A DNA stretch of 64,000 nt from Eledone cirrhosa. Its lineage: Eukaryota. Below the pieces are notes generated by a model. The model was not told the DNA's origin. It was given only the letters and a program-made list of their open reading frames with translations, and made no database searches. The stretch lies in assembly GCA_964016885.1 (NCBI GenBank), contig OZ024740.1:352222001-352286000 (forward strand), given 5' to 3'. This document shows positions 10,833 through 64,000 of the stretch, piece after piece (position 1 is the stretch's first letter; every line of letters starts with the position of its first letter). The translations under genes and the position numbers were made by a program.

Positions 10833-11008
10833 AGGTGGACCATAACGCACCAGAGTACTCGATATTTGGGGTAGTAGAGTGGGTAATATGAAAAGATTCA
10901 GGACCCCGACAGCTGACCTCCGGCCGTTTCGACAGCTAGATCCGAACCTAGCTAGTTAGGATCTAGCTGTCGAAACGACCGGAGCTCACCCGTCGGGGTC
11001 CTGAATCT

Positions 11009-11015
<7 letters not shown>
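10831..11015 (-). mobile_element. Palindromic mini-insertion, same family as 6001-6198
   Basis: ~57-bp imperfect inverted arms plus the tail GAGTACTCTGGTGCGTTATGGTCCACCTGG on the minus strand; between (TA)n tracts. Confidence 0.6.
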
Positions 11016-11046
<31 letters not shown>

Positions 11047-11050
<4 letters not shown>

Positions 11051-12441
11051 GAAAGGGTCAAACTAGATGAGATGCAGTTTGGTTTTGTGCCTGGGAAGAG
11101 TACAACAGATGCCCTCTTCTTGGTGAGACAAATGCAAGAGAGGTTCTTAGAGAAGAATAAGCCACTATACTTAGCCTTTGTTGACCTAGAGAAGGCCTTT
11201 GATAGGGTACCCCGATCTGTCATCTGGTGGTCCCTAAGGAAGCTGGGTGTTGAGGAATGGCTTGTAAGGACAGTGCAAACTTTGTACAGAGGTACTCTCA
11301 GTAAAGTCAGGGTAGGAATGGAGTTTAGTGAGGAATTCCAGATACAAGTAGGAGTACATCAGGGTTCGGTCCTCAGCCCGCTCTTGTTCATTATAGTCCT
11401 CCAAGCCATAACAGAGGAGTTTAAGACTGGCTGTCCATGGGAACTTCTCTATGCTGACGATCTGGCTCTTATGGCAGAATCAGTAGAGGAGCTAGAGAAT
11501 AAATTCCGGCTATGGAAGCAGCAGTTGGAAGCAAGAGGACTGAGAGTAAATCTAGCTAAGACAAAAGTGTTGATGAGTAGAAAAGAGGACAAAACCCTGA
11601 TTCCGTCAGGGAAATGGCCATGTTCGATATGCAGAAAAGGAACTGGCATAAATTCTATAAAATGCACACAATGTAGGTCCTGGGTACACAAGAGATGTAG
11701 CGGGATAGCAGGCAAACTAACAGGTAGGGAGAAATATGTATGCAGTAGATGTACAGGGAAATTAGACAGTAGAAGTCGCACTGATAGACACATTTTTCAA
11801 ATGCGAGAGGGCGCTATAGAAGTGGTGGATAGCTTCCGGTACCTAGGAGATCAGATTAGCATGGGAGGAGGGTGTTCCGAGGCCATAGTATCTAGAATAA
11901 GGACGGGTTGGAAGAAGTTTAGGGAGCTGCTTCCTCTGTTGACGAAGAAGGGTTTCTCCCTGCGTACGAAAGGCCGGTTGTATGATGCCTGTGTGAGGAG
12001 CGCGATGCTGCATGGTAGTGAGACATGGGCAGCTACCGCAGAAGATATGCGACGGCTGGAGAGAAATGAGGCAAGCATGCTCCGTTGGATGTGCAGTGTA
12101 AATGTGCGTGAACGACCCAGCATAAATGTGTTGAGAGAGAAACTGTGTCTGAGAGGGATAGAATGTAGTGTACGGGAGAGGAGACTGGGGTGGTATGGAC
12201 ATGTGATGCGCATGGAGGATGACCGATGGGTGAAGAAGTGCCAGGAAATGCCAGTTGAAGGAAGACGTGGTAGAGGTAGACCACGAAAAACATGGGCGGA
12301 GGTGGTGAGAACAGACCTCAGATCATTGAAGCTCACGGTGGAGATGACGAGGGACCGTGACGAGTGGAGAGATGCTGTGCTGAATAAGACCCGTCCCACC
12401 CTTGCAAGCAGGGAAAAGCGGACGTAAAATGATGATGATGA

Positions 12442-18174: not shown

Positions 18175-21100
18175 ATATCTATCTAGGGCGGGTAAATTTC
18201 CCGAGATCCATGGACGAGTTCTCTCCAGCGGGCTCTGTCCCTCATTATCTCTGCCATGTCCTGCGTCTCCAACAGACCAGTGTCTGTCCTTAGGGCATCA
18301 ACATACGTTAACCTTGCTCTTCCTCTTCCAGTGTGCCCATGTAGGGGCTCCCACAGGAGCACTGACTGCAATGTCAACTCTGGATGTCGGTGAGCATGTC
18401 CAGCTAACCTCAGTCTCCTGTGTCACTTTTGAGCTGACTTTTGGGAGGCTCCCATACAGCTCTGAGTTTTTCATCCTCAGTGTATACTGATTAATGTTCA
18501 GAGCCATCCTCAGCATTCTCGTGTAGCACCCATCCACCATCTGAGTGAGTTTCTTGGTCAGTGTCCAAGTCTCAGACCCGTACAGCAGCACAGACTCCAC
18601 TACAGCAATGAAGAGGCGGATTTTCAGGTCTTTACGAAGGTCCGACTTCCACACCGATCTCAAGCTGTGGCACGCCGCCCAAGCTTTGCTCTTCCTCTCA
18701 ACCACATCATCTTCCGTATTCCCAATCTTTGCTCCCAAATACAGAAAGTCCTCAACCAATTCTATCGGCTTCCCGCCTACATTAGTGATCCCCTCTGGCT
18801 TCTCAACATTCTCTACCAGATGTTTTGTTTTAGTCTCATTCATTCTCAGCCCCACACTCATCGACACAGTCTCAACCTCCTGCATCAAATCCTCTGCCTC
18901 CTTCACTGTATTTGTCACCAAAACTATGTCGTCGGCAAATTCAGCATCTGATACCTTTTTCGCCTTAACTCTCCTGCTCTGAGCCGGTGCTACAGTAAAG
19001 CTAGAGTCCTGGTGTTTCTCCAGTGCAAGGCGCATACAATAGTCCACTACGATGATAAAAAGGTAGGGAGCCAATGTATCTCCCTGGAGCACTCCAGCCA
19101 GTATCTCAAAGAACTCTGTCATCCCATTAGGTGTAATGACATGGGCTTTCGTGTTGGTGTAGAGCAGTGATATCAGGTACACTATCTTCTTGGGGATTCC
19201 ATAAGCCTGTAAGATCTTCATCAGGCAGTGACGGTCGACAGAATCAAAGGCCTTCCTAAAGTCAATGAAAACCATGACAGCAGGAAGGCACTTTGCTCTA
19301 GCTCCCTCTAATATCCTCCTGTTGGGGGTATTTGCCACAAGTGACGTCAGTGAGATCCCCCTGTAGTTGTTGGTGTTAGAGAGATCTCCCTTCTTTGGCA
19401 CTGGGACGATGTTACTGATCCTCCACTGATTCGGGGCAACTCCTTTCTCCAGTGCCTGGTTACAGAACCCCAGGATGATATAATCAAAATCACACCTCTT
19501 CATCACCTCTGATGCCACTTCATCTTCTCCATGATCCTTGCCCTCCTTGATCTTCTTCTTGGCTCTCTGAAGCTGCTCTCTGGTGAAGGGCTCTGTCTAA
19601 ATATCCAGTTCCTCAAACAGCCGCCTGATCTCCCCAGTGCTCTGGGTTGTGGAGGGTGGCTCTCCTAGTAGGGTCCTAAAATGGTCGAGCCATTTCCTCT
19701 TCCTATCCTCGGGCTCCATTCCCTGGATCTGACTCGAACACCTTCTCTTCCTCCCTGTGATCTCGTTGATGATCATCCAGCTCTCCTTACATCCAGATCT
19801 GTCAACCGCTCTCTCCACACTTCTGATCTTCTCTATCAGTGCCTCCTCTCTGGCCTCAGTGTAAGCGGTACAGAGTTCTTCGCTCATCACCTCCACAGTC
19901 TCCATCCTCTCCTCCGTAGGATCAGCATAGAATTGGTCCTTGGCAGCTTTCAGGTGTGACTGCACACACTTTTGGGTTTGCAGAGCTGACGTGCTTCCTT
20001 TTGTTCTTTTTCCTCTGCACCAGGGTTTCACTTGCTTCCGTCACTGCATTGATGAAGTGCCCGTACCTCCTCGTCACACTCTCCTCAGTCCATCCAATCT
20101 CTCCACACAGAGCACTAAACCTGTTCCGTACTTCCACTGTGAACCTCTCCTGTAGCTTATCATCTTCTTTGAAAGCTCCCCTGTCATAGATTGCTCTCCG
20201 GGGCTGAGCCTTGCTCTTTCTTAAGCTCACGCGGACCTCACTCATAACAAGCCGGTGGTCACTACCCAGTGTACTAAAATAGTTGTATGGTTCTGTGTTC
20301 AGAACACTATTCCGCCACTTTTTCCTCACCAGAATGAAATCAATCTGGGATTTGGACAGGTGCATATCTGAAATGTAGGCCCACATCTTCCCCGGATTCT
20401 TCCTAAACCTTAGGTTGGTCGCTATCAAGTTCGCCTCCAGCAGGGTGTCTCTAAGTAGTCTTCCATTTCGGTTGGTGTTGTTATGGAAGTACCAGCAAGG
20501 ATCTTCACTGCCCTCCTTACTCAGATGTGCATTGAAGTCCCCCAAAACAAGCAGGATGTTGTGTGCTTGAGTGGTGTTGACAGCTCTACACACCTCCTCA
20601 TGGAACTCTTCCGCACTCACATCACTGTCTCCCTCGGTTGGACTATAGGCTGAGATGACTGTCAGTCTTGGGTTTCCATTGAAGGTCACCCTCAACACTC
20701 GCGGGGAGACAGGCATTATTTCCCTCACCAATAAACTGGTTTTTGTGCTGAAAACAAAACCCACTCCTCCCACTGCAGCATTGGTCATGTTCTTCACTGC
20801 CGATGTAGTGATGAGCTGGCTCCTCTTCCCGATCATCACACTCCTCACGGGATCATCGTGTAGGATCCTGTATCCTTGGATCGCAAGTATCTGTATACCA
20901 CTCTCCTCGAACAGATGTCCCAACTCCTCCCTCTTCTCTAGCGTCCGAATAGTCCTCACATTCTAAATGTCCATTTTGATGGCTCTTCTGCAGGACAAAA
21001 CTGCATTCTTTATATTTGTCACAGAGACAGCTGATCCATCATCCACTGGCCCTCTCTGTGGCTCTAAGCCAGCAGAGTCATAACGACCAGACTGCTCCTT

Positions 21101-22004: not shown

Positions 22005-22257
22005 ATGTGTTTTTATCATAGCAAGAAATTGTTCTTCTCATTCCACATAACAACGTAATTATCCTCGTTTTTTTCCGCCCATTGCCAGGGAACATCTTTC
22101 TTCGGTTGTAACGTTTTTCGAAATATTTACTTCTGCGTCCACAGATTGATTTTTTTTCAATTTCAGAAGATCCCGTTAAGGGTGAAAGTATCGATTCTTT
22201 GCTTAAACTTTAATCTGATCTTATAATAAATATTTTCTCTACGGGTTTATTTATATA

Positions 22258-22311
<54 letters not shown>

Positions 22312-22350: not shown

Positions 22351-22399
<49 letters not shown>

Positions 22400-23157
22400 T
22401 AACAGATTAAAGTTTAAGCAAAGAATCGCTGCTTTCACCCTTAACGGGATCTTCTGAAACTAACAAAGTCAATCTGTGAACGCAGAAGTGAATATTTCAA
22501 AAAAACGTTGCAACCGGAGGAAGACAAGAAGACGATACTTTGGTTCGTGGAAACGTTCCCTGGCAAAGAACGGGAAAAAACAAATATAATACGTCATTAT
22601 TTGGAGCGGTGAATAAAATAAAGTACCAGCAATGCACTGGGTAATTGCTGGCCTTGTGCCTAAAGTAGAAACAATTATTTGGAGCGGTGAAAAACAATTA
22701 CACGCAAAGACAAAACCACGTTTATGGTATAAAAGAAGTCGTAGACTAATATTCTATTAGGTGGTTCATAGAGACGTTCTCTGGCAATGAACGGAAAAAA
22801 CGAAGATAATACGTCATATGTGGAGCGGGGAGAACAATTGCACGCAAAGACAAAACCACGTAAATGGTATAACTGAAGTCGTAGACTAAAATTCTAACTA
22901 GGAAACCGAATGATTCTCGACTTCAGAGTTAAGAATAAAGTAAATAAATTACAGAGGTAATTGAAATTAAATAAATACATACACGCATCCATATACGTAC
23001 ATACACAAGCATACGCGAAAACACTCGCCATAGGTATACAAATACACGCACGTACACAAAAAAACAAACCCCGCACGCACATACAGAACTCACGCAACGC
23101 CTGTACCCGCACGCATACCAATGTATACACCAAATACACATAAAAATATATATAAAA

Positions 23158-23198
<41 letters not shown>

Positions 23199-23765
23199 CG
23201 TGTATACATATAATTAAATAAACGTATATAAATAAATAAAAAACAAGCGCACACACATACCTACATATAAATACACATATGTTCGGAGACGTACGTCAAC
23301 CAAAACACGTGGAACAATTCTTTCGCGGTGATTGATTGGTTCAACGGCATATGCAACAAGGAACATTGCCGTTTTATCCAATTCGACATCAATAATTACT
23401 ACTCCTCCATCACTTTACCACTTCTCCTTAGAGCTATCAATTTCGCTAAAACACTCACAGTGGTTAAGGATTTCGAACGTTTTTTTTTAAATATTCACTT
23501 CTGCGTTCACAGATTGACTTTGTTAGTTTCATAACAACGTAATTATCATCTTTCTTCGGTTGTAACGTTTTTCGAAATATTTACTTCTGCGTTCACAGAT
23601 TGATTTTTTTCAATTTCAGAAGATCCCGTTAAGAGTGAAAGCAGCGATTCTTTGCTTAAACTTTAATCTGTTATTTTAATAAATATTTGCTCTACGGTTC
23701 TTATATATTTGATATATATTTATCCTTATCGAGCCCTCTTTGGATTTTAGTCTTCAAATGTTATT
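22005..23765. mobile_element. Cluster of direct and inverted copies of a PLE-associated repeat plus a PLE RT fragment (23290-23470)
   Basis: The block ..CAGAAGATCCCGTTAAGGGTGAAAGCAGCGATTCTTTGC.. occurs at ~22165 (+), ~22420-22460 (-), ~23618 (+) and ~28860-28895 (-). ORF 23328 (WFNGICNKEHCRFIQFDINNYYSSI..LLRAINFA) resembles PLE RT motif A. Confidence 0.65.
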
Positions 23766-24416
23766 ATTATTACTCTATATATATATATATATAATAAATG
23801 TGAAGATAGAAGATTTGCTTCGAAGTCGCTAGACGTATCTGAGGAACTTGCGAATCCTCCAGAGTCAGGTTCGATCCACAAATAGATCGTACCTCGAGCT
23901 GTTCACCGGAGAAACAATTGTAATACGTTAATAAATTGTTTCGATGCACCACTGATTCTTCGTTTTCTATAATATTATAATCTGTTATTTTAATAAATAT
24001 ATATATATATATATATTAGAAAGTGAGGTTTTTTTTACAAAATGAAAAATAACCGAGGTGTCCTACACGAGTGAAAGTATAAAGAAAAAAAGATGAAATC
24101 GAAAATGCAACTGGAGTCTTATTTTTAAAAAAATATATATATTTATTTTGTTCCTTTACCGGTTTCGCAGTTCTTCTGCTTTTCAAAAGTAGAGTTGAGA
24201 TGGATGGGGTGGTTTTCCTCACACACATATATATATATATATATAACTTTAACTTTAATTATATCTCATAAAATAATACAACTGGCTTTTCCACATTATA
24301 CATATTGTTAGCACCCCAAACACTTAAATTGGGTTTATATTTTAATATAACCTAATGTTTGTTGAGTAAGATGGTTACCAGTCAGAGTTTAGCTTTAAAC
24401 TATCTCTGTTATTGTA

Positions 24417-28471: not shown

Positions 28472-28830
<359 letters not shown>

Positions 28831-29317
28831 TACATTGTACAGATTAAAGTTTAAGCAAAGAATCGCTGCTTTCAACATTAACGGGATCTTCTGAAACTAA
28901 AAAATGTAATCTGTGAACGCAGAAGTAAATATTTAGAGAAACGTTGCAACCGAAGGAAAACAGGAAGACGATATTTTGGTTCGTGAAGACGTTCCCTGGT
29001 AGTGAACGGAAAAAAAGCGAGGATAATACGTCGTTATGTGGACTGAGAAGAACAATTTCATGCAAAGACAAGACCAAGTTTATGGTATAAATGGAGTCGT
29101 TAGACTAATATTCTATTTAAAATAACCGAATGATTTCCAGCCCCGGAGTTTAAGAATGATGTAAATAAAATTTAAAACGAAAATGGCAGAGGTTATTAAA
29201 ATAGTAAAAGTAAATAGTGAAGATTTGGGCCAGTACATACGTATGGGCCGACGGACATATACATACATATACATACGCACACACAAATACATACACACAC
29301 TCAAACACACACACGCA

Positions 29318-32790: not shown

Positions 32791-33377
32791 TGCTAATTAC
32801 TAGTGGATTAGTAGTAATTGGTTAATTAACTGAAACATATTAAGAATTGCTGCTGTTGGTGGTGGTGTTCAGACCAAGGAAAAGCCTGATCAAGCAGAAA
32901 TGTGATCGAAAGTGTTCCATTCGTGACTATCCAATATATTTGTAAATATGTACTACATTATAGTAAGTACAAGAGATTACATTATCTAATGTGTTGCGGG
33001 TCTCATGTTAGCTCGCGTACTCTTGTACTCTCAGTCGCTTCACGTCATGAAACTGGGATAAGCATCGGCCAAATGAGCCTTCTGGTTTACGACAGACTTT
33101 AGGCTTTAGACTAGTCATGACTATCACGCTCTTTTCTTGAGTATCGCATATTAAGAAGTATGGGATTTAACTATCGAGCGATCACGTAGAGGCTCCACAT
33201 TAATCCATGGCTGGTGGAGTAGATCTATGATCGAAGTTGTTCCAGTTGCGACCATCACATCTTTTTCCAGGCATAGTGTATCTAGGGTTACGCCATTTAA
33301 TGTATCTGTTGTTTTTTAAAACAAGAGTGAGAGTTGGTAAAGGCTTTACTGCTATTTCTAGGCTTCCAGAATATATG

Positions 33378-34115
33378 GATCTAGCAGCCAATGAATTCAA
33401 GGCTAAATTTATCCAGCGTATACACTTCTTTAAGTGCATAAACAGGGGGAGATCTACCACCCTGTCCCGTTTCATATGGAGACTCCGTGACTGGGAGTAT
33501 AATATTCTCAGCATTAAATGGAGCGTTTTGGACAGAGCATGTTCATGCTGCGCTGCCGGCCACAATTATCAACTCTACCTCCACGAGAGCAAGAAGAAAA
33601 CTGACCTAAAGTTTTGCTGCCAACGGAGAAGCGCCATGTTAGCCAATTTCAAACAACTGTCCCCGAACATCACTCAAAGACCCCATTAGTTCCACCTGGA
33701 TGACGTGTCTCGTTGGGGTAGATAGCTTTAACCAGTACGCACACTATGAAGACACCATCATCAGATACACCTATTGACCACCACATACATTAATTGAACA
33801 TTCAGACCGCCAGCAACGTCACATACACGGAACTGCAAGTCTTAATGAGCCCATAAATACACACTGTATGACATTGGATTCCATCAAGATTAATGGCGTC
33901 ACCGAGACGCTAACTTTCCTGGACTCACCCATTCATCTGCTATCACTGACTTAATCCTCCTACCATGTGACCTGATCAACTCAGAGAAGCATTTAATGGC
34001 CTCGAACTTCGCTTTCAATTTTGTTTACCTTATTCTTCACTGCTTCTGATGATATAGACGTATTTTCGTCTTGAAACCGCTAATAGTGCGAAGTTAAGTC
34101 AAACTTAATATAAAT
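33378..34115 (+). pseudogene. PLE 3' remnant: GIY-YIG endonuclease region plus 3' UTR with a hammerhead-like motif
   Basis: LAANEFKAKF..H.F...STTLSRFIWRLRD..IKWSVLDRA..L.LHE resembles the PLE GIY-YIG C-terminal region; CTGATGA..AGACG/CGTCT..GAAA at ~34046-34075. Confidence 0.7.
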
Positions 34116-34162
34116 ACTCTCAACTTTCACACTGTGTTGCTCTTTTCTTTTGTTTGTATGTT

Positions 34163-34204
<42 letters not shown>

Positions 34205-34277
34205 AACATACACACATATACATACATATACACATACATACATATATATACATATGTATATACATACATATTCACAT

Positions 34278-34348
<71 letters not shown>

Positions 34349-34358
34349 CATACATATA

Positions 34359-35353
34359 CACTGTGTTTGTCACCAGAACTGTCGTCGGCAAATTCAGCAT
34401 CCGATATCTTTTCCGCCGTAACTCGCCTGCTCTGAGCCGGTGCTACAGTAAAGCCAGAGTCCTGGTGTTTCTCCAGTGCAAGGCGCATACAATAGTCCAC
34501 TACGGTGATAAAAAGGTAGGAAGCCAATGTATCTCCCTGGAGCACTCCAGCCAGTATCTCAAAGAACTCCGTCATCCCATCAGGTGTAATGACTTGGGCT
34601 TTAGTGTTGGTGTAGAGCAGTGATATCAGGTCCACTATCTTCTTGGGAATTCCATGAGCATGTAAGATCTTCATCAGGCGGAGGAGGCAGAGGAGTCGAT
34701 GCAGGAGGTGGAGACTGTGTCGATGAGTGTGGGGCTGAGAATGAATGAGATTAAGACGAAGTATCTGGTAGAGAATATTACTAATGTAGGCGGGTTGAGG
34801 ACTTCCTGTATCTGGGAGCGAAGATTGGGAATACAGAGGATGATGTGGTCGAGAGGAAGAGCAAAGCTTGGGCGGCGTGCCACAGTTTGAGATCGGTGTG
34901 GAAGTCGGACCTTCGTTGCTGTAGTGGAGTCTGTGCTGCTGTACGGGTCTGGGACTTGGACACTGACCAAGAAACTCACTCAGATGGTGGATGGGTTCTA
35001 CACGAGAATGCTGAGGATGGCTCTGAACATTAATCAGAATTCACTGAGGATGAAAAACTCAGAGCTGTACAGGAGCCTTCCAAAAGTCAGCTCGAAAATA
35101 GCACAGAGGAGACTGAGGTTAGCTGGACATGCTCACCGACATCCAGAGATGACACTGCACTCAGTGCTCCTGTGAGAGCTCCTGCATGGACACACTGGAA
35201 GTGGGAGACCGAAGTTGATATATGTTGATGCCCTATGGACAGACACTGGTCACTTGGAGACGCAGGACATGGCAGCGATGATGAGGGACAGAGACCGCCG
35301 GAGAGAACTCGTCCATGGATCTCGGGAATTTTATCCGCCCTAGATAGATAGAT

Positions 35354-36295: not shown

Positions 36296-37150
36296 CTTTT
36301 CGTAGTAAAAATAATAGAATGAATAAATAAAAGAAAAATATATTATTAGGTGAGAGTATAAAATTATTCAATGGATGTAGAATAATAACAGAGACTGGGA
36401 TGGAAGACTACGAGAAAAGTGTTCAGGAGATCCTCAAAATGAAATGACATCAGTTGGGTGTGTCTGACCAAATTCCTTCCCCACAAGCAACTGTAACCGA
36501 AACCAAAGTCATTTGCATGTTTGTTAGGCTGGTACTAAAATATTTACGTTTAGGTGAAGGACAGCTTAGACATATATACATATACACATATAGATATGCC
36601 TATACACATGTGTATATATATATATACACACATATGTATACACACATATGTATACACACGTATATATACACACATATGTATATACACATATGTATACACA
36701 CGTATATATATATATACACACATGTATGTATATATACACACATTCATGTGTGTGTGACTAATTCATATATACAAACACAGACATAAATCTCGGGCGAGCT
36801 CAAAATAAATCTCTTTATAAGTAATGAATACATACAAACATATATATATATGTGTGTGTGTGTATGCTTACACACACACACACTATATTTAGGGTTAATC
36901 GATACATATAAAATATATAACAATTATGTTTCTCAATAAAAAAGCTCAGGGCATCAATTATACAAGTTTAAACGTTATTTAAAAAAGGATAAATATCAAT
37001 TGAGAAACTACAGTAGCAGTTCATATATACAGAACAGTTGATATGTAAGTAAATATACTTACTTCAAGATGGTAACATAATTAGGGATTGATACTATTAT
37101 AATTACTAAGATCGATGGTTTGTTATCAATTGATATATATATATATATAT

Positions 37151-40100
37151 ATTGGAATAAATGCTCTGAAATAGCGATATATATGTGAATATAGACATAG
37201 AATATTCGAAAATATTCTGTATGTTTATAATAAACATTTTGAAGACCTAATCGCTATAGAATAGAATACGTCATGTATTACAATTAGATTCTCGATAAAA
37301 GCAAGGGAAGTAATCTACGCGTTTCATTCTTATTAGAAATCTTCAGGACTACATATCCAGTGCTTTTATCGAGAATGACACAGCTAGAGACTTATAGAAT
37401 ACTTAGCTGTGTACAGGAACTGGATTGAAAGAGCGGTTGCCGGTCCGGCAGAAATTAGAAATTGGAATAAATGCTCTGAAATAGCGATATATATGTGAAT
37501 ATAGACATAGAATATTCGAAAATATTCTGTATGTTTATAATAAACATTTTGAAGACCTAATCGCTATAGAATAGAATACGTCATGTATTACAATTAGATT
37601 CTCGATAAAAGCAAGGGAAGTAATCTACGCGTTTCATTCTTATTAGAAATCTTCAGGACTACATATCCAGTGCTTTTATCGAGAATGACACAGCTAGAGA
37701 CTTATAGAATACTTAGCTGTGTACAGGAACTGGATTGAAAGAGCGGTTGCCGGTCCGGCAGAAATTAGAAATTGGAATAAATGCTCTGAAATAGCGATAT
37801 ATATGTGAATATAGACATAGAATATTCGAAAATATTCTGTATGTTTATAATAAACATTTTGAAGACCTAATCGCTATAGAATAGAATACGTCATGTATTA
37901 CAATTAGATTCTCGATAAAAGCAAGGGAAGTAATCTACGCGTTTCATTCTTATTAGAAATCTTCAGGACTACATATCCAGTGCTTTTATCGAGAATGACA
38001 CAGCTAGAGACTTATAGAATACTTAGCTGTGTACAGGAACTGGATTGAAAGAGCGGTTGCCGGTCCGGCAGAAATTAGAAATTGGAATAAATGCTCTGAA
38101 ATAGCGATATATATGTGAATATAGACATAGAATATTCGAAAATATTCTGTATGTTTATAATAAACATTTTGAAGACCTAATCGCTATAGAATAGAATACG
38201 TCATGTATTACAATTAGATTCTCGATAAAAGCAAGGGAAGTAATCTACGCGTTTCATTCTTATTAGAAATCTTCAGGACTACATATCCAGTGCTTTTATC
38301 GAGAATGACACAGCTAGAGACTTATAGAATACTCCAATTTCTAATTTCTGCCGGACCGGCAACCGCTCTTTCAATCCAGTTCCTGTACACAGCTAAGTAT
38401 TCTATAAGTCTCTAGCTGTGTCATTCTCGATAAAAGCACTGGATATGTAGTCCTGAAGATTTCTAATAAGAATGAAACGCGTAGATTACTTCCCTTGCTT
38501 TTATCGAGAATCTAATTGTAATACATGACGTATTCTATTCTATAGCGATTAGGTCTTCAAAATGTTTATTATAAACATACAGAATATTTTCGAATATTCT
38601 ATGTCTATATTCACATATATATCGCTATTTCAGAGCATTTATTCCAATTTCTAATTTCTGCCGGACCGGCAACCGCTCTTTCAATCCAGTTCCTGTACAC
38701 AGCTAAGTATTCTATAAGTCTCTAGCTGTGTCATTCTCGATAAAAGCACTGGATATGTAGTCCTGAAGATTTCTAATAAGAATGAAACGCGTAGATTACT
38801 TCCCTTGCTTTTATCGAGAATCTAATTGTAATACATGACGTATTCTATTCTATAGCGATTAGGTCTTCAAAATGTTTATTATAAACATACAGAATATTTT
38901 CGAATATTCTATGTCTATATTCACATATATATCGCTATTTCAGAGCATTTATTCCAATTTCTAATTTCTGCCGGACCGGCAACCGCTCTTTCAATCCAGT
39001 TCCTGTACACAGCTAAGTATTCTATAAGTCTCTAGCTGTGTCATTCTCGATAAAAGCACTGGATATGTAGTCCTGAAGATTTCTAATAAGAATGAAACGC
39101 GTAGATTACTTCCCTTGCTTTTATCGAGAATCTAATTGTAATACATGACGTATTCTATTCTATAGCGATTAGGTCTTCAAAATGTTTATTATAAACATAC
39201 AGAATATTTTCGAATATTCTATGTCTATATTCACATATATATCGCTATTTCAGAGCATTTATTCCAATTTCTAATTTCTGCCGGACCGGCAACCGCTCTT
39301 TCAATCCAGTTCCTGTACACAGCTAAGTATTCTATAAGTCTCTAGCTGTGTCATTCTCGATAAAAGCACTGGATATGTAGTCCTGAAGATTTCTAATAAG
39401 AATGAAACGCGTAGATTACTTCCCTTGCTTTTATCGAGAATCTAATTGTAATACATGACGTATTCTACTCTATAGCGATTAGGTCTTTAAAATGTTTATT
39501 ATAAACATACAGAATATTTTCGAATATTCTATGTCTATATTCACATATATATCGCTATTTCAGAGCATTTATTCCAATTTCTAATTTCTGCCGGACCGGC
39601 AACCGCTCTTTCAATCCAGTTCCTGTACACAGCTAAGTATTCTATAAGTCTCTAGCTGTGTCATTCTCGATAAAAGCACTGGATATGTAGTCCTGAAGAT
39701 TTCTAATAAGAATGAAACGCGTAGATTACTTCCCTTGCTTTTATCGAGAATCTAATTGTAATACATGACGTATTCTATTCTATAGCGATTAGGTCTTCAA
39801 AATGTTTATTATAAACATACAGAATATTTTCGAATATTCTATGTCTATATTCACATATATATCGCTATTTCAGAGCATTTATTCCAATTTCTAATTTCTG
39901 CCGGACCGGCAACCGCTCTTTCAATCCAGTCCCTGTACACAGCTAAGTATTCTATAAGTCTCTAGCTGTGTCATTCTCGATAAAAGCACTGGATATGTAG
40001 TCCTGAAGATTTCTAATAAGAATGAAACGCGTAGATTACTTCCCTTGCTTTTATCGAGAATCTAATTGTAATACATGACGTATTCTATTCTATAGCGATT

Positions 40101-41709
40101 AGGTCTTCAAAATGTTTATTATAAACATACAGAATATTTTCGAATATTCTATGTCTATATTCACATATATATCGCTATTTCAGAGCATTTATTCCAATTT
40201 CTAATTTCTGCCGGACCGGCAACCGCTCTTTCAATCCAGTTCCTGTACACAGCTAAGTATTCTATAAGTCTCTAGCTGTGTCATTCTCGATAAAAGCACT
40301 GGATATGTAGTCCTGAAGATTTCTAATAAGAATGAAACGCGTAGATTACTTCCCTTGCTTTTATCGAGAATCTAATTGTAATACATGACGTATTCTATTC
40401 TATAGCGATTAGGTCTTCAAAATGTTTATTATAAACATACAGAATATTTTCGAATATTCTATGTCTATATTCACATATATATCGCTATTTCAGAGCATTT
40501 ATTCCAATTTCTAATTTCTACCGGACCGGCAACCGCTCTTTCAATCCAGTTCCTGTACACAGCTAAGTATTCTATAAGTCTCTAGCTGTGTCATTCTCGA
40601 TAAAAGCACTGGATATGTAGTCCTGAAGATTTCTAATAAGAATGAAACGCGTAGATTACTTCCCTTGCTTTTATCGAGAATCTAATTGTAATACATGACG
40701 TATTCTATTCTATAGCGATTAGGTCTTCAAAATGTTTATTATAAACATACAGAATATTTTCGAATATTCTATGTCTATATTCACATATATATCGCTATTT
40801 CAGAGCATTTATTCCAATTTCTAATTTCTGCCGGACCGACAACCGCTCTTTCAATCCAGTTCCTGTACACAGCTAAGTATTCTATAAGTCTCTAGCTGTG
40901 TCATTCTCGATAAAAGCACTGGATATGTAGTCCTGAAGATTTCTAATAAGAATGAAACGCGTAGATTACTTCCCTTGCTTTTATCGAGAATCTAATTGTA
41001 ATACATGACGTATTCTATTCTATAGCGATTAGGTCTTCAAAATGTTTATTATAAACATACAGAATATTTTCGAATATTCTATGTCTATATTCACATATAT
41101 ATCGCTATTTCAGAGCATTTATTCCAATTTCTAATTTCTGCCGGACCGGCAACCGCTCTTTCAATCCAGTTCCTGTACACAGCTAAGTATTCTATAAGTC
41201 TCTAGCTGTGTCATTCTCGATAAAAGCACTGGATATGTAGTCCTGAAGATTTCTAATAAGAATGAAACGCGTAGATTACTTCCCTTGCTTTTATCGAGAA
41301 TCTAATTGTAATACATGACGTATTCTATTCTATAGCGATTAGGTCTTCAAAATGTTTATTATAAACATACAGAATATTTTCGAATATTCTATGTCTATAT
41401 TCACATATATATCGCTATTTCAGAGCATTTATTCCAATTTCTAATTTCTGCCGGACCGGCAACCGCTCTTTCAATCCAGTTCCTGTACACAGCTAAGTAT
41501 TCTATAAGTCTCTAGCTGTGTCATTCTCGATAAAAGCACTGGATATGTAGTCCTGAAGATTTCTAATAAGAATGAAACGCGTAGATTACTTCCCTTGCTT
41601 TTATCGAGAATCTAATTGTAATACATGACGTATTCTATTCTATAGCGATTAGGTCTTCAAAATGTTTATTATAAACATACAGAATATTTTCGAATATTCT
41701 ATGTCTATA

Positions 41710-41713
<4 letters not shown>
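37151..41713. repeat. 310-bp tandem array (~3.8 units in one orientation, ~10.9 units in the other), each unit with a hammerhead ribozyme: retrozyme-like
   Basis: Unit starts recur at 37151, 37461, 37771 and 38081; orientation flips at 38333/38334; 5 substitutions seen; flanked by (TA)n. Confidence 0.97.
38447..38489 (+). ncRNA. Minimal type I hammerhead ribozyme (representative of 11 plus-strand and 4 minus-strand copies)
   Basis: GTAGTC-CTGAAGA-T-TTCT(AATA)AGAA-T-GAAAC-GC-GTA-GATTAC: CUGANGA and GAAA core, stem I GUAGUC/GAUUAC, palindromic ACGCGT stem III, predicted cleavage after GUA at 38483. Confidence 0.85.
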
Positions 41714-41752
<39 letters not shown>

Positions 41753-45689: not shown

Positions 45690-46013
45690 AGCACTTACCT
45701 CTTTAGTGATGCCCTGATTAACTTTTTCAAATTTCATTTGAAAAGGAAAATCAGAGTAGAGAGGGAAGTACTCTCTTCCCATCATTTTGTTCAAAGATGG
45801 TGGTCAGGGTCGCCGTGGCTGTTTTTTAATGGGCTTTCTCCACGATGGCCCTCGGAGGTCTCCTCCCTATTGGGGAATTTTTCATTGTTCCTTTTTTTGT
45901 TACATCCTCTTTTTTGTTTTTTGTACACGCAGAAATGCCCATTTGTGCCGTCCTGTATTGTCCTGTACTGTCCTTAATGTCTACTTTGTGTCAACCCTTG
46001 TGGTTAATAAAGA
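45690..46013 (+). mobile_element. Possible L1/Tx1-type LINE 3' end
   Basis: ALINFFKFHLKRKIRVEREVLSS..F.QRW followed by a T-rich UTR ending in AATAAAGA at the gap. Confidence 0.4.
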
Positions 46014-46213
46014 NNNNNNNNNNNNNNNNNNNNNNNNNNNNNNNNNNNNNNNNNNNNNNNNNNNNNNNNNNNNNNNNNNNNNNNNNNNNNNNNNNNNNNN
46101 NNNNNNNNNNNNNNNNNNNNNNNNNNNNNNNNNNNNNNNNNNNNNNNNNNNNNNNNNNNNNNNNNNNNNNNNNNNNNNNNNNNNNNNNNNNNNNNNNNNN
46201 NNNNNNNNNNNNN
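46014..46213. other. Assembly gap (200 N)
   Basis: Run of N; the round size suggests a scaffolding placeholder. Confidence 0.99.
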
Positions 46214-47238
46214 ATACAATATGGAATGTTTATTCACAATTATTTTCCATCATATACGTGGAATATCTTGTGTATTTCGAGAGGCGTTTGTGGAGAAAAC
46301 TTGATAAATCAATACATCTGGGAAAAAAAAAAAAAAAAAAAAAAACAGATAACAAGGAATAAAATAAGATTTTTCAGAATATAATTACACTGATTTTTGT
46401 CAGGTTAATTAAAATCGATTTCTTGTTTCAAAGTATAATGATCACCTGTAACAGCTGTTGAAAGAAAGAAATTCCAGATATTATAAAAATACAGCCATGA
46501 AGTTTACATTGTTTATATCGTATCAGTTGGTGGTATAACATACTCACATTCATGATTAGATATGATTCATACTATCTTATATACCATGTATATTATCGTG
46601 AAGTATCTGAAGTTATAAATTAATTTTTTTTTTAATTTAGTCATGTATTTAAGTAGTGTTTTAGCTAAGTGATGTGTAGTGTGTGTGCGCGCGTGTGTGT
46701 GCATGCGTGCGAAAAGTAAACCGAAAACAATAAAGCAAACAATACAGTACAATGAAGATATATTTTAGTTTAACGTTTGATCCAGTGGGAAAAGAGTCTT
46801 AATGTTTCGAACGCTAGTCCTTCATCAGAAGATGGAATGAGAAATAAAAGAAGAAATAGAAAGATAGAGGAAAAATTTGTGTACGGAATGTTCAGCTACT
46901 TTAATTAATTTCACGGGGAAGCTGGTCCGTTGATCGAACGACTGGAACACCCATCGACCATACTGACGGGTATATATTCCATTCCACAGTCATTATAACA
47001 TAAGATAACCGGTTTCAATCGAAGGTCCAGCCTGGTTCATGAGTTCTTTAATCTACAGTACTCACAATAGACAGAATAAATTTACTTTTAATTGACTATA
47101 CGTTAAAATTGTATTTCTAGTGACTGAGCTTTGCTTTGCTTCAACGAAATTTTATTTATATATTTTTTTAAATTTTGAATATATGTTATGTTAAAGATAA
47201 CTGCTTCAACGCAGTCTTGTGGAAGAGAAGACATCTCT

Positions 47239-61654: not shown

Positions 61655-62435
61655 AGGGGGATTCTTTTACAGCTCTTCTTCGTCCACATTTCTGAGAGGG
61701 TCGTGAAGGCAAAGTCCTCAAGCACGTCTTGCAACGGGTCCTGCGAGAAGCAACCGTCTCCAATGGATCCAGCTGGATCTCCAAGGGCGACGAGCTGAGT
61801 TCAATAGATGCTATCCAACCATCTTGCGTGGGGTCTACAACTGGGTCTCCTGTCGGTTGGTTTTGCCCGTAAAATCTGTTCAGTGATTCTATCCTGAGAC
61901 ACTCTAACCACATGTCCGTAATCTTTCAATTCCAAGAAGTAGCAGCTCTACCTGGAGCAACTCTTTGATCTCCAAGCTATGCACTATCGAGTAACGTTTC
62001 ACCAAAGACCCTTTAGAGGAAAGCCATTCAGTCGCTTGTATTCGTGATCTTATTCTTTCAGTCATTCCCCAAGATTCATGACCATAGGAAAAGGTTGGCT
62101 CGTATACGGAATTGAAGAGAGCGAGTTTGGCTTTTACGCCCACCTCCCTTCTGATTACCAAATGCTGAAACTGACACATTACTCCACCAGCTGCTGGCAA
62201 ATTTCTTCCACTTAATTCAGCCTCCTGCCTTCCATCACTCGTGAAAACGACCCTGAGATACTTGGAATTCTCCACCATCTTCAGTGGAACTCCACTCACA
62301 TGTAGAGTACACTGCATAGACTTCCTTGTGAGTATGAGTGTCTCAGTCTTCGCAGCACTGATTTTCATTCCTGCCGTAAACCTATCAAGTGCACGTTGGA
62401 AATCACCTGATGAGTTAAGTAACACTGTCGTCTGC
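61655..62435 (-). pseudogene. Degraded RTE (Expander-like) 3' half
   Basis: GMKISAAKTE..KYL.V.FTSDGR..KAKLALFNSVY.PT.SYGHESW.MTERIRSRIQA.E. Confidence 0.8.
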
Positions 62436-64000
62436 AAATTCCACTTACAAACCGGCTACGCATATCAATCCTGTCCAATATTTGGAACAGGGGAGCTCAC
62501 ACCCTCGCGGAGTCCGACACCCACATTGAATGGTTTCAACTTAGTATTTGTGTTCGGATAAATGGTGCTAAGGCATTCATATAGAAAATTAGGGCAACAA
62601 GTAGCTATCCATCGATCCCTGTCTGCTGATAGGTGAAGAATTCACGAGAAATGACAATGTAGCCATTTTAAAAATATGGCATCAGTGACGCAATAGACAG
62701 TACTAAAGTAACATTTTTCTTCGAAAATGATAAAGCATCTAATAATTTTAAAAAAATCGTCCAGAATAATACTTTTTCTTTAATGTCAGCCAGGTTGAAT
62801 TTTTGTTTTAAATACTAGTTTTTCTTTAAAATAAAGATGCGTTTTATATCCCGAAAAAATACGGTAAGTAATGAGAGCGTTTTGGGAAGCGGGCGAGAGA
62901 TTTAGGTGTCACATTAGTGTGCGGTCGCCTGCAGTATCCGGAGTTAACGTTATGTAATAACCGGACCTGTTTACCGGTTTAGTTTCTGTAGTTGCGTTTA
63001 ATTGCATGCTGAACTGTAAAAGTACAGGTAAAACTCAGGTAATGCGTATATGACCAGATATAACACACAAAGTGGTACCGAGATTTACACTTGGGAATAT
63101 TTAACAAATTAAAAGCCAATTCATATTTAAGAAAATTATTAGGACTGAAAAAAATAATGGTTTCTGATTTGCGCACAACGCCGGCATTTTTGGAGGAAAG
63201 GGAAAGACGATTAAATTGATCCAGTACATTACTGGTACTTATTTCATCGACACTGTACGATGAAAGGCAAAGCTCACCTCGGACTGAAAAAAATGTTATA
63301 ACTATTGTTGAGAGTTTATGTCGAAAAACGTAGAGTAAATATAGCAACTGTACATACAACCATCTATCATTTCACTACGTACACACCGACCGTAATTTTT
63401 GGTGCACATATTTATGTAATGTATTCTCGGATCTCGAATAATCGGCCATCACTCTCGCTAATTAATTTTTCAAATTTTTTTCCAATTTTCTTTATACATT
63501 AAAAAGATTACACATGACAAAGTACATTATTAGAAATCTCATACGTTATAAAATAAATAGGATGGGTTCTCATTATGTAAACTAAACGACTAATTCTGGT
63601 AAAAAAAAATATCAACGGAGACAACCTAGAAAAATTAGCGATTTTCCAACCAGCAGGGCGCTGGAATGTAACCGGGTTGTTAAGCGGGGCGTTCGTTTAA
63701 CGACCAATTCGTTTTACGAATAATTCGGAGCCTGGTCGTCGTTTTCCTCCGCCAAATCGAGCAGAAGGCATCACTTATGATTAAAAAATAAAATTTAAAA
63801 AAAAAAAAAAAAAAAAGGAGCTTCATGGCTAATGCAACGGGTATCACTGACTCTTCACCGCAACAATGTTTTCGCCATCTTTTCCGCGGTTCGCAGCCAA
63901 GTGTGTAGAGATTACCCACTCCCTGTTAGCCCCATCTTTTCTTCTCATATTTAATTATTAAATAGCTACTGAAGCGACTGAGAGTATTTACATAATCAGG

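Follow-up and report, generated by a model that had tools for sequence, protein, structure and literature searches.

Background

Two kinds of element bear most closely on the repeat array described here, which lies in a 64,000-nt stretch of Eledone cirrhosa DNA (assembly GCA_964016885.1, contig OZ024740.1, positions 352,222,001 to 352,286,000, forward strand; hereafter the window, to which coordinates refer unless another locus is named). The first are the metazoan retrozymes that lack long terminal repeats (non-LTR retrozymes), characterized in the main-text passages of PMC7229834 and of the preprint bioRxiv 10.64898/2026.07.22.740005 by non-coding tandem units of about 300 nt, low G+C content, one type I hammerhead ribozyme per unit and thousands of copies, all of which the array here has in common with them. 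The second are the Penelope-like elements (PLEs), which the main text of PMC8557442 credits with a tail of 30-40 bp and, in Neptune and Naiad, with a bias towards (TA)n; like the array here, they show an inverted 5'-truncated partner, a tail at one end only, a TA microsatellite target and no visible target-site duplication. A purified PLE protein, Poseidon PAc, cuts and extends both strands, and two adjacent internal start sites of reverse transcription bound the tail; the protein is predicted to be a dimer (main-text passages of PMC11167929). Both the retrozyme identity and the PLE footprint are known already, and a link between them, in which PLEs and rolling reverse transcription of circles form the retrozyme route, was proposed in PMC7229834 and in the 2026 preprint, as far as their main texts go.

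The array in the window is probably the result of a single insertion with two divergent arms that end at fixed sites 26 nt apart; a TA tract was likely cleaved on both strands by a Penelope-type (Neptune-like) reverse transcriptase (RT)-endonuclease, with each end then priming a complementary DNA (cDNA) on the same RNA.

A two-armed hammerhead array in a TA tract

The left arm (37151..38333, minus strand) has a 310-nt period and holds 3.8 copies, all 100% identical to one another, running in ribozyme sense from unit position 64 to position 6, and its outer end is a fixed site termed B (unit position 316, equal to 6). Its terminus at 37151 is TTTATTCCAAT, next to the (AT)n of the left target tract (37133..37150), with an AT at 37151-37152 that is compatible with both tract and unit. 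The right arm (38333..41722, plus strand) begins with TCCAATTTCT and holds 10.9 copies, from unit position 1 to about 281-290, where its outer end coincides with a second fixed site, A; it carries five substitutions, each in a single unit. The two inner (5') ends meet at the inversion junction at 38333, unit position 64 against unit position 1, with 1 nt of exact microhomology. A 26-nt tail (37151..37176, minus strand; unit positions 291-316) is present at the left end only. The junctions given in the initial annotation agree with these in coordinates and letters, except for a C at the right end: the last right-arm unit reads TATATTCA and then TATATA, with a T in place of the unit's C at 41714, which puts the true end of the right arm between 41713 and 41722 and makes 41714..41747 the TA run of the right target tract. 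The array and its inversion exceed chance; the 6-nt contiguity of the arms on the unit does not, although the overlap itself (positions 1-6) is arithmetically true. Two private variants mark the locus, one at unit position 43 (38375, plus strand; 11/11 copies of the right arm, 3/3 of the left; peculiar to this locus among 104) and a second at unit position 193 (38525, plus strand; 11/11 and 4/4 copies).

Judged from its sequence, the array is a hammerhead retrozyme of the non-LTR type with a 310-nt unit, for which self-cleavage is predicted. One predicted type I hammerhead per unit, read by hand from the sequence (38447..38489 in the first right-arm copy, plus strand), comprises a 6-bp stem I, the core CUGANGA...GAAA and a 2-bp palindromic stem III, with a predicted cut after 38483. 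The core stays the same in all of 16 sequence variants, whose changes in stem I keep its pairing (covariation); an Rfam search of the unit gave no match at the gathering score. Short palindromic stem III is the architecture reported to work in dimers (PMC4209133, main text). The coding capacity of the unit is nil, with a longest stop-free stretch of 59 codons, and the array contains no open reading frame (ORF), hence not the RT plus GIY-YIG ORF of an autonomous PLE; a tandem non-coding unit within 150-400 nt, with one type I hammerhead of short palindromic stem III in each, is what distinguishes a non-LTR retrozyme. As had been noted from the sequence at the outset, the predicted cleavage site (after unit position 151) coincides with neither end of the array.

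In all, this repeat has been inserted about a thousand times or more, and the locus is one such case. The exact left-end (B) junction occurs in 948 copies in the genome and the exact right-end (A) junction in 1,040, both lower bounds, as ends also fall a few bases off, and a similarity search of the same genome returned 37 loci. Retrieval by similarity, by ribozyme core and by one end yielded 136 further loci, whose arms were then mapped; with the window these make 137 loci, of which 104 are simple and two-armed, 20 one-armed, 12 complex and one incomplete at its retrieved boundary. Among the last 40 loci, 36 were retrieved as known A+B pairs and are excluded from the tests of pairing.

Fixed outer ends and the TA target

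Each simple two-armed locus has one outer end at site A (unit position about 281-290) and one at site B (about 315-323), 26 nt apart at unit positions of about 290 and 316. This pairing of A with B holds in 69/69 simple two-armed loci not pre-selected as pairs (33 picked regardless of their ends, 22 for their B end, and 14 for an A end without the exact B pattern). Among the matches listed for contig C1 (100 A, 88 B), a set that overlaps with the 69 loci, 54/54 divergent neighbours no more than 20 kb apart combine A with B, and either order accounts for 27 of them; three further neighbours are convergent or on the same strand. Independent choice of site would make about half of the loci A+A or B+B. 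By analogy, the fixed A/B pair is the PLE 'tail' between two RT start sites, and the insertions resemble those of PLEs in their inverted 5'-truncated copy (104/137 loci), in a tail at one end only and in a (TA)n target. Outer ends fixed 26 nt apart also mean that the arms overlap almost fully on the template and do not abut.

The target is a (TA)n tract without clear duplication, and 98/104 loci are TA-rich on both sides, which upholds the part of the initial annotation that concerned TA targeting. Microhomology as the sole determinant of priming fared worse: exact genome patterns for a (TA)n junction at the cleavage site and at another AT-ending position of the unit occur 0 times each, against 948 and 1,040 for the two real ends. 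From the absence of these control junctions it follows that the start is set by a site on the RNA, with the TA match tuning it by a few bases at most.

Circular or linear template

For most insertions the template would have been of monomer type, a single unit copied over and over, and the simplest such template is a monomer circle produced by the hammerhead; the variants described below lend this reading moderate confidence. A minority of insertions is inferred to derive from multimeric or mosaic RNA. The 97 loci contain 41 haplotypes, within-array variants occur at 5.4e-4 per base, and 129/140 allele records are singletons. A variant private to the sample, that is, private among about 100 sampled loci of a family of more than 1,000, is found in every unit of both arms at 20/104 loci, the window locus included, which corresponds to about 0.19 new fixed variants per daughter where a one-unit bottleneck predicts 0.17.

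That two-site PLE priming always used a long, linear, uncleaved array transcript, with no circle involved, is rather unlikely. Linear copying can neither lengthen arrays nor fix a new variant in all units, yet at 11 loci every unit of both arms, with two or more units in each, carries a private variant. If arrays were linear copies of parents as mixed as today's, about 45 variants mirrored in the two arms would be expected, a figure that very young, uniform parents would lower, and only three of 104 loci show any (L081, L106 and L122). The unit differences mirrored in both arms of those three loci do speak for a linear template, as does the in vitro finding that uncleaved RNA was the dominant substrate and that ribozyme mutants were still inserted (main-text passages of PMC11167929). 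In favour of a circle, inner ends do not pile up at the predicted cut site (see below) and 897 passes contain no indel there. Among the sequencing runs listed, none is on record as RNA. Two different 1-nt insertions 2 bases past the predicted cut are each fixed array-wide (L049, L059, L088, L172, L170, L177 and L065), possibly as a ligation scar or through tolerance of stem I.

Probably one RNA for both arms

The consensus of the two arms is identical at 77/84 loci, compared with 10.7% of 6,966 between-locus pairs. At L081, L106 and L122, variants restricted to the last one or two units before the outer ends recur in both arms and line up when counted from those ends; conversion between the inverted arms would align them from the centre, and these loci are best read as cases in which both enzymes began side by side on one multimeric RNA. 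The earlier suggestion of a circular or multimeric RNA template is upheld.

Dual priming from two different RNA molecules, one per strand, is improbable. It would account for L098 and six other loci of the 84, where the consensus differs between arms, and a cell dominated by one haplotype would mimic sharing; but identity between loci is low, private variants and mirrors in outer register are common to both arms, and strict A+B pairing is easier on one RNA. Phase jumps within one arm, with the strand unchanged (L031, L058, L082, L174 and L196), are as expected for template switching by reverse transcriptase.

Less probable still is a single cDNA that folds back, so that the second arm copies the first, after which the endonuclease cleaves at the remaining fixed site; the main text of PMC8557442 suggests such a step for the PLE tail under the name 'EN-mediated resolution', EN being endonuclease. 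Folding back would give the same orientation and a common haplotype, and the junctions of L036, L127, L191 and L206 are near-perfect hairpins. Neither arm nests in the other, however, at 17/104 loci, four of them with arms of less than 400 nt, which excludes fold-back there; in addition, mirrors are in register from the outer ends and not from the centre, and start offsets are spread over the unit. The non-nesting loci, together with microhomology of at least 2 nt at 34/57 gapless inversion junctions (19% by chance; 23 more junctions have gaps or inserts), support the proposal of two separately primed cDNAs that had been made for the window.

It is highly improbable that the inversion at 38333 is an assembly artefact or that the array grew by unequal crossing-over after insertion of a single unit. 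No short-read contig crosses 38333 among the matches listed (25 of 367 pieces), and the runs may be from another individual; other inversion junctions of the unit are nonetheless present in short-read contigs of three runs of one sample, so that the inversions are not in general a product of assembly. Runs of other organisms had shares of 0.25-0.30, and X4 yielded one contig at a depth of 4. Variants common to several units, as crossing-over would leave, occur in a few old arrays (L034, L038), but within-array variants are mostly singletons, the same layout recurs with different junctions at more than 100 loci, and crossing-over cannot produce two fixed ends in opposite orientation. The preference of the initial annotation for insertion over unequal crossing-over is thus well founded.

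Inner ends and the inversion junction

The phase of the inner ends is uniform (79 loci, chi-square p 0.26), so the random phase that had been anticipated for array ends applies to the inner ends and not to the outer ones, which are fixed at A and B. Twenty-four loci are left out of the phase and microhomology statistics because the similarity search favoured the two private variants of the window locus, and apparent clusters of inner ends at unit positions 42/106 and 193 are an artefact of the same bias. Two other patterns did not replicate. The first 69 loci seemed to have an excess of inner A-arm starts near site B (7 within 10 nt, 4.7 expected), but a later set had 0/35 within 5 nt; and inner ends at first seemed scarce over the ribozyme (5, with 19.6 expected), but later numbered 12, with 9.9 expected. 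Inner ends fall within 5 nt of the cut site in 2/208 cases, with 7.4 expected.

At loci chosen without similarity search, an inner start lies at most 6 nt from the outer end of the other arm in 3/79 cases, against 3.3 expected, and in a later set 0/35 inner starts lie within 5 nt of it. Since site B is fixed, the left arm was bound to end at TCCAAT, and the start of the right arm is one draw from a uniform phase; the 6-nt contiguity in the window is therefore chance. The geometry proposed in the initial annotation is accordingly upheld in its PLE-type form, by the fixed paired ends, the tail and the TA target, and not as the L1 twin priming that the contiguity had suggested. L1-type twin priming, in which a second primer anneals internally beside the stop of the first cDNA and the arms abut on the RNA, has a negligible probability, although in the window the start of the right arm lies no more than 6 nt from where the left arm has its outer end, as it is refuted by the fixed outer end (948 copies) and by the absence of a variable internal second site.

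Candidate enzyme

A decayed frame resembling the endonuclease end of a PLE (33231-33689 in the window) was the query that retrieved PLE families from the genome, 150 of 16,821 candidates being scored. One locus, L148, has a 772-aa ORF, and in the Atlas clusters nearest to it (0.96-0.98) some of the members have HTH_animal, GIY-YIG or RVT_1; a Pfam scan of four PLE frames assigned no family, and a PDB sequence search returned nothing significant. These ORFs are taken here to be Neptune-like, from a Cys linker before the endonuclease and from PMC8557442, and not on the basis of a tree. Two such PLE families are likewise inserted in TA tracts as divergent arms; in 10/11 divergent pairs a short end is combined with a tailed one, and the tails, of about 70 and 90 nt, are longer than that of the array. 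One of the two families and the unit have only a 28-nt ribozyme core in common. A Neptune-like PLE family is thus a candidate partner of the retrozyme.

A second, older-looking family resembles the unit at 72-80% over positions of about 205-386, with the tail region kept and with divergent pieces as well; pieces of it lie in L044 (9558-9939), L064 (8569-9196), L077 (6317-6817), L086 (1565-1872) and L054 (8007-8194). The part common to both families may be an enzyme-binding element. In L160 (2088-3486), four other hammerhead motifs spaced 466 nt apart form a different retrozyme array that adjoins a PLE.

A model of the insertion

In the proposed sequence of events, an RT-endonuclease would cut both strands of a TA tract; acting as a dimer, it would start a cDNA at each of the two sites, A and B, of the same RNA; both cDNAs would extend upstream for several unit lengths and stop arbitrarily; and their 3' ends would be joined by microhomology (2-3 nt at the inversion) and filled in by repair. 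It is possible, and offered tentatively, that the inverted, tailed PLE insertion is what a single dimeric enzyme with unequal halves normally produces. Each half would use one strand of the break as primer and have a start site of its own on an RNA common to both, and on a retrozyme circle both halves would run round repeatedly, displacing each other's cDNA.

Several observations weigh against this account or parts of it. The three mirrored loci cannot derive from a plain monomer circle and need multimeric or mosaic templates; for L081 in particular, either the template was a mosaic of up to 18 units or both enzymes jumped in a coordinated way. The private variants may be present in unsampled parents. 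The arm consensus differs at 7/84 loci, the arms of L098 differ over their outer four units and L092 shows a period-7 pattern, and at L098 and L092 template switching or later conversion also occurs. Among the 137 loci, the 20 that are one-armed (two at retrieval edges, two at N gaps and at least two with a tiny second arm) and the 12 that are complex depart from the simple layout. On the side of the enzyme, the PLE pair at L111 has two tailed ends, which may be two insertions, and none of 40 PLE loci is homologous to the unit beyond the ribozyme core.

Other features of the window

The window contains further traces of PLEs. A miniature two-armed insertion of the 3' end of the L148 PLE family (28580-28791), set in an AG/TA microsatellite, bears a hammerhead motif of its own in each arm and is short at one end and tailed at the other. 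A two-armed, internally deleted insertion of the second PLE family, of the L149-L151 type (22378-23787), likewise has one short and one tailed end and lies in TA tracts, and further end fragments of that family lie at 22095-22268 and 28809-29169. Frames at 10967-12427, 18298-20962, 34120-35040 and 61904-62455 have, by eye, LINE-like RT or endonuclease character and are presumably RTE-like. A run of N at about 45900-46220, visible in the translated frames, is an assembly gap.

Comparison with known systems

The mechanism of tandem and inverted PLE insertions is called undefined in the main text of PMC8557442, and that PLEs mobilise retrozyme circles is proposed in the passages of PMC7229834 that deal with it. 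A young family with more than 1,000 insertions is a large natural readout of such a process, with start-site pairing, one template per locus and countable signs of a circle as against a linear RNA, and it supplies a short RNA, two start sites and named candidate proteins for direct study in vitro. If a dimer with unequal halves is indeed at work on circles, a single step would account for the PLE tail, for the inversion and for how ribozyme satellites arise, and the arrays would testify, at the level of the genome, to target-primed rolling-circle reverse transcription of circular RNA in animals; symmetric priming on two strands is also relevant to gene insertion tools based on retroelements. 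Strict start-site pairing or same-template evidence for retrozyme arrays was not found in the literature searched, which consisted of main texts without supplements and few subscription papers.

Two-armed insertions, fixed ends and TA targets are all present here and go undescribed in the main-text passages of the metazoan retrozyme papers, where the word 'inverted' occurs 0 times (PMC7229834) or once, in a reference title (bioRxiv 10.64898/2026.07.22.740005); the main text of the preprint invokes local expansion by unequal crossover, whereas the arrays here look as if they were born multimeric. From the PLEs as described in the main text of PMC8557442, the array differs in having no ORF, a tail of 26-33 nt, arms that are both multimers and a one-of-each pairing that is quantified. 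The reaction of Poseidon PAc in vitro resembles the one proposed here in its use of both strands, two start sites, an AT-rich target and a predicted dimer, but in the main-text passages of PMC11167929 the start site is equal between strands, and pairing per insertion, an inverted product and a circular template are not addressed. Twin or dual priming by L1 (PMC2837659, main text) likewise joins two target-primed cDNAs by microhomology in inverted orientation; in contrast to its variable internal second priming, poly(A) and target-site duplications, both starts are fixed here, poly(A) is absent and the two arms cover overlapping parts of the template.

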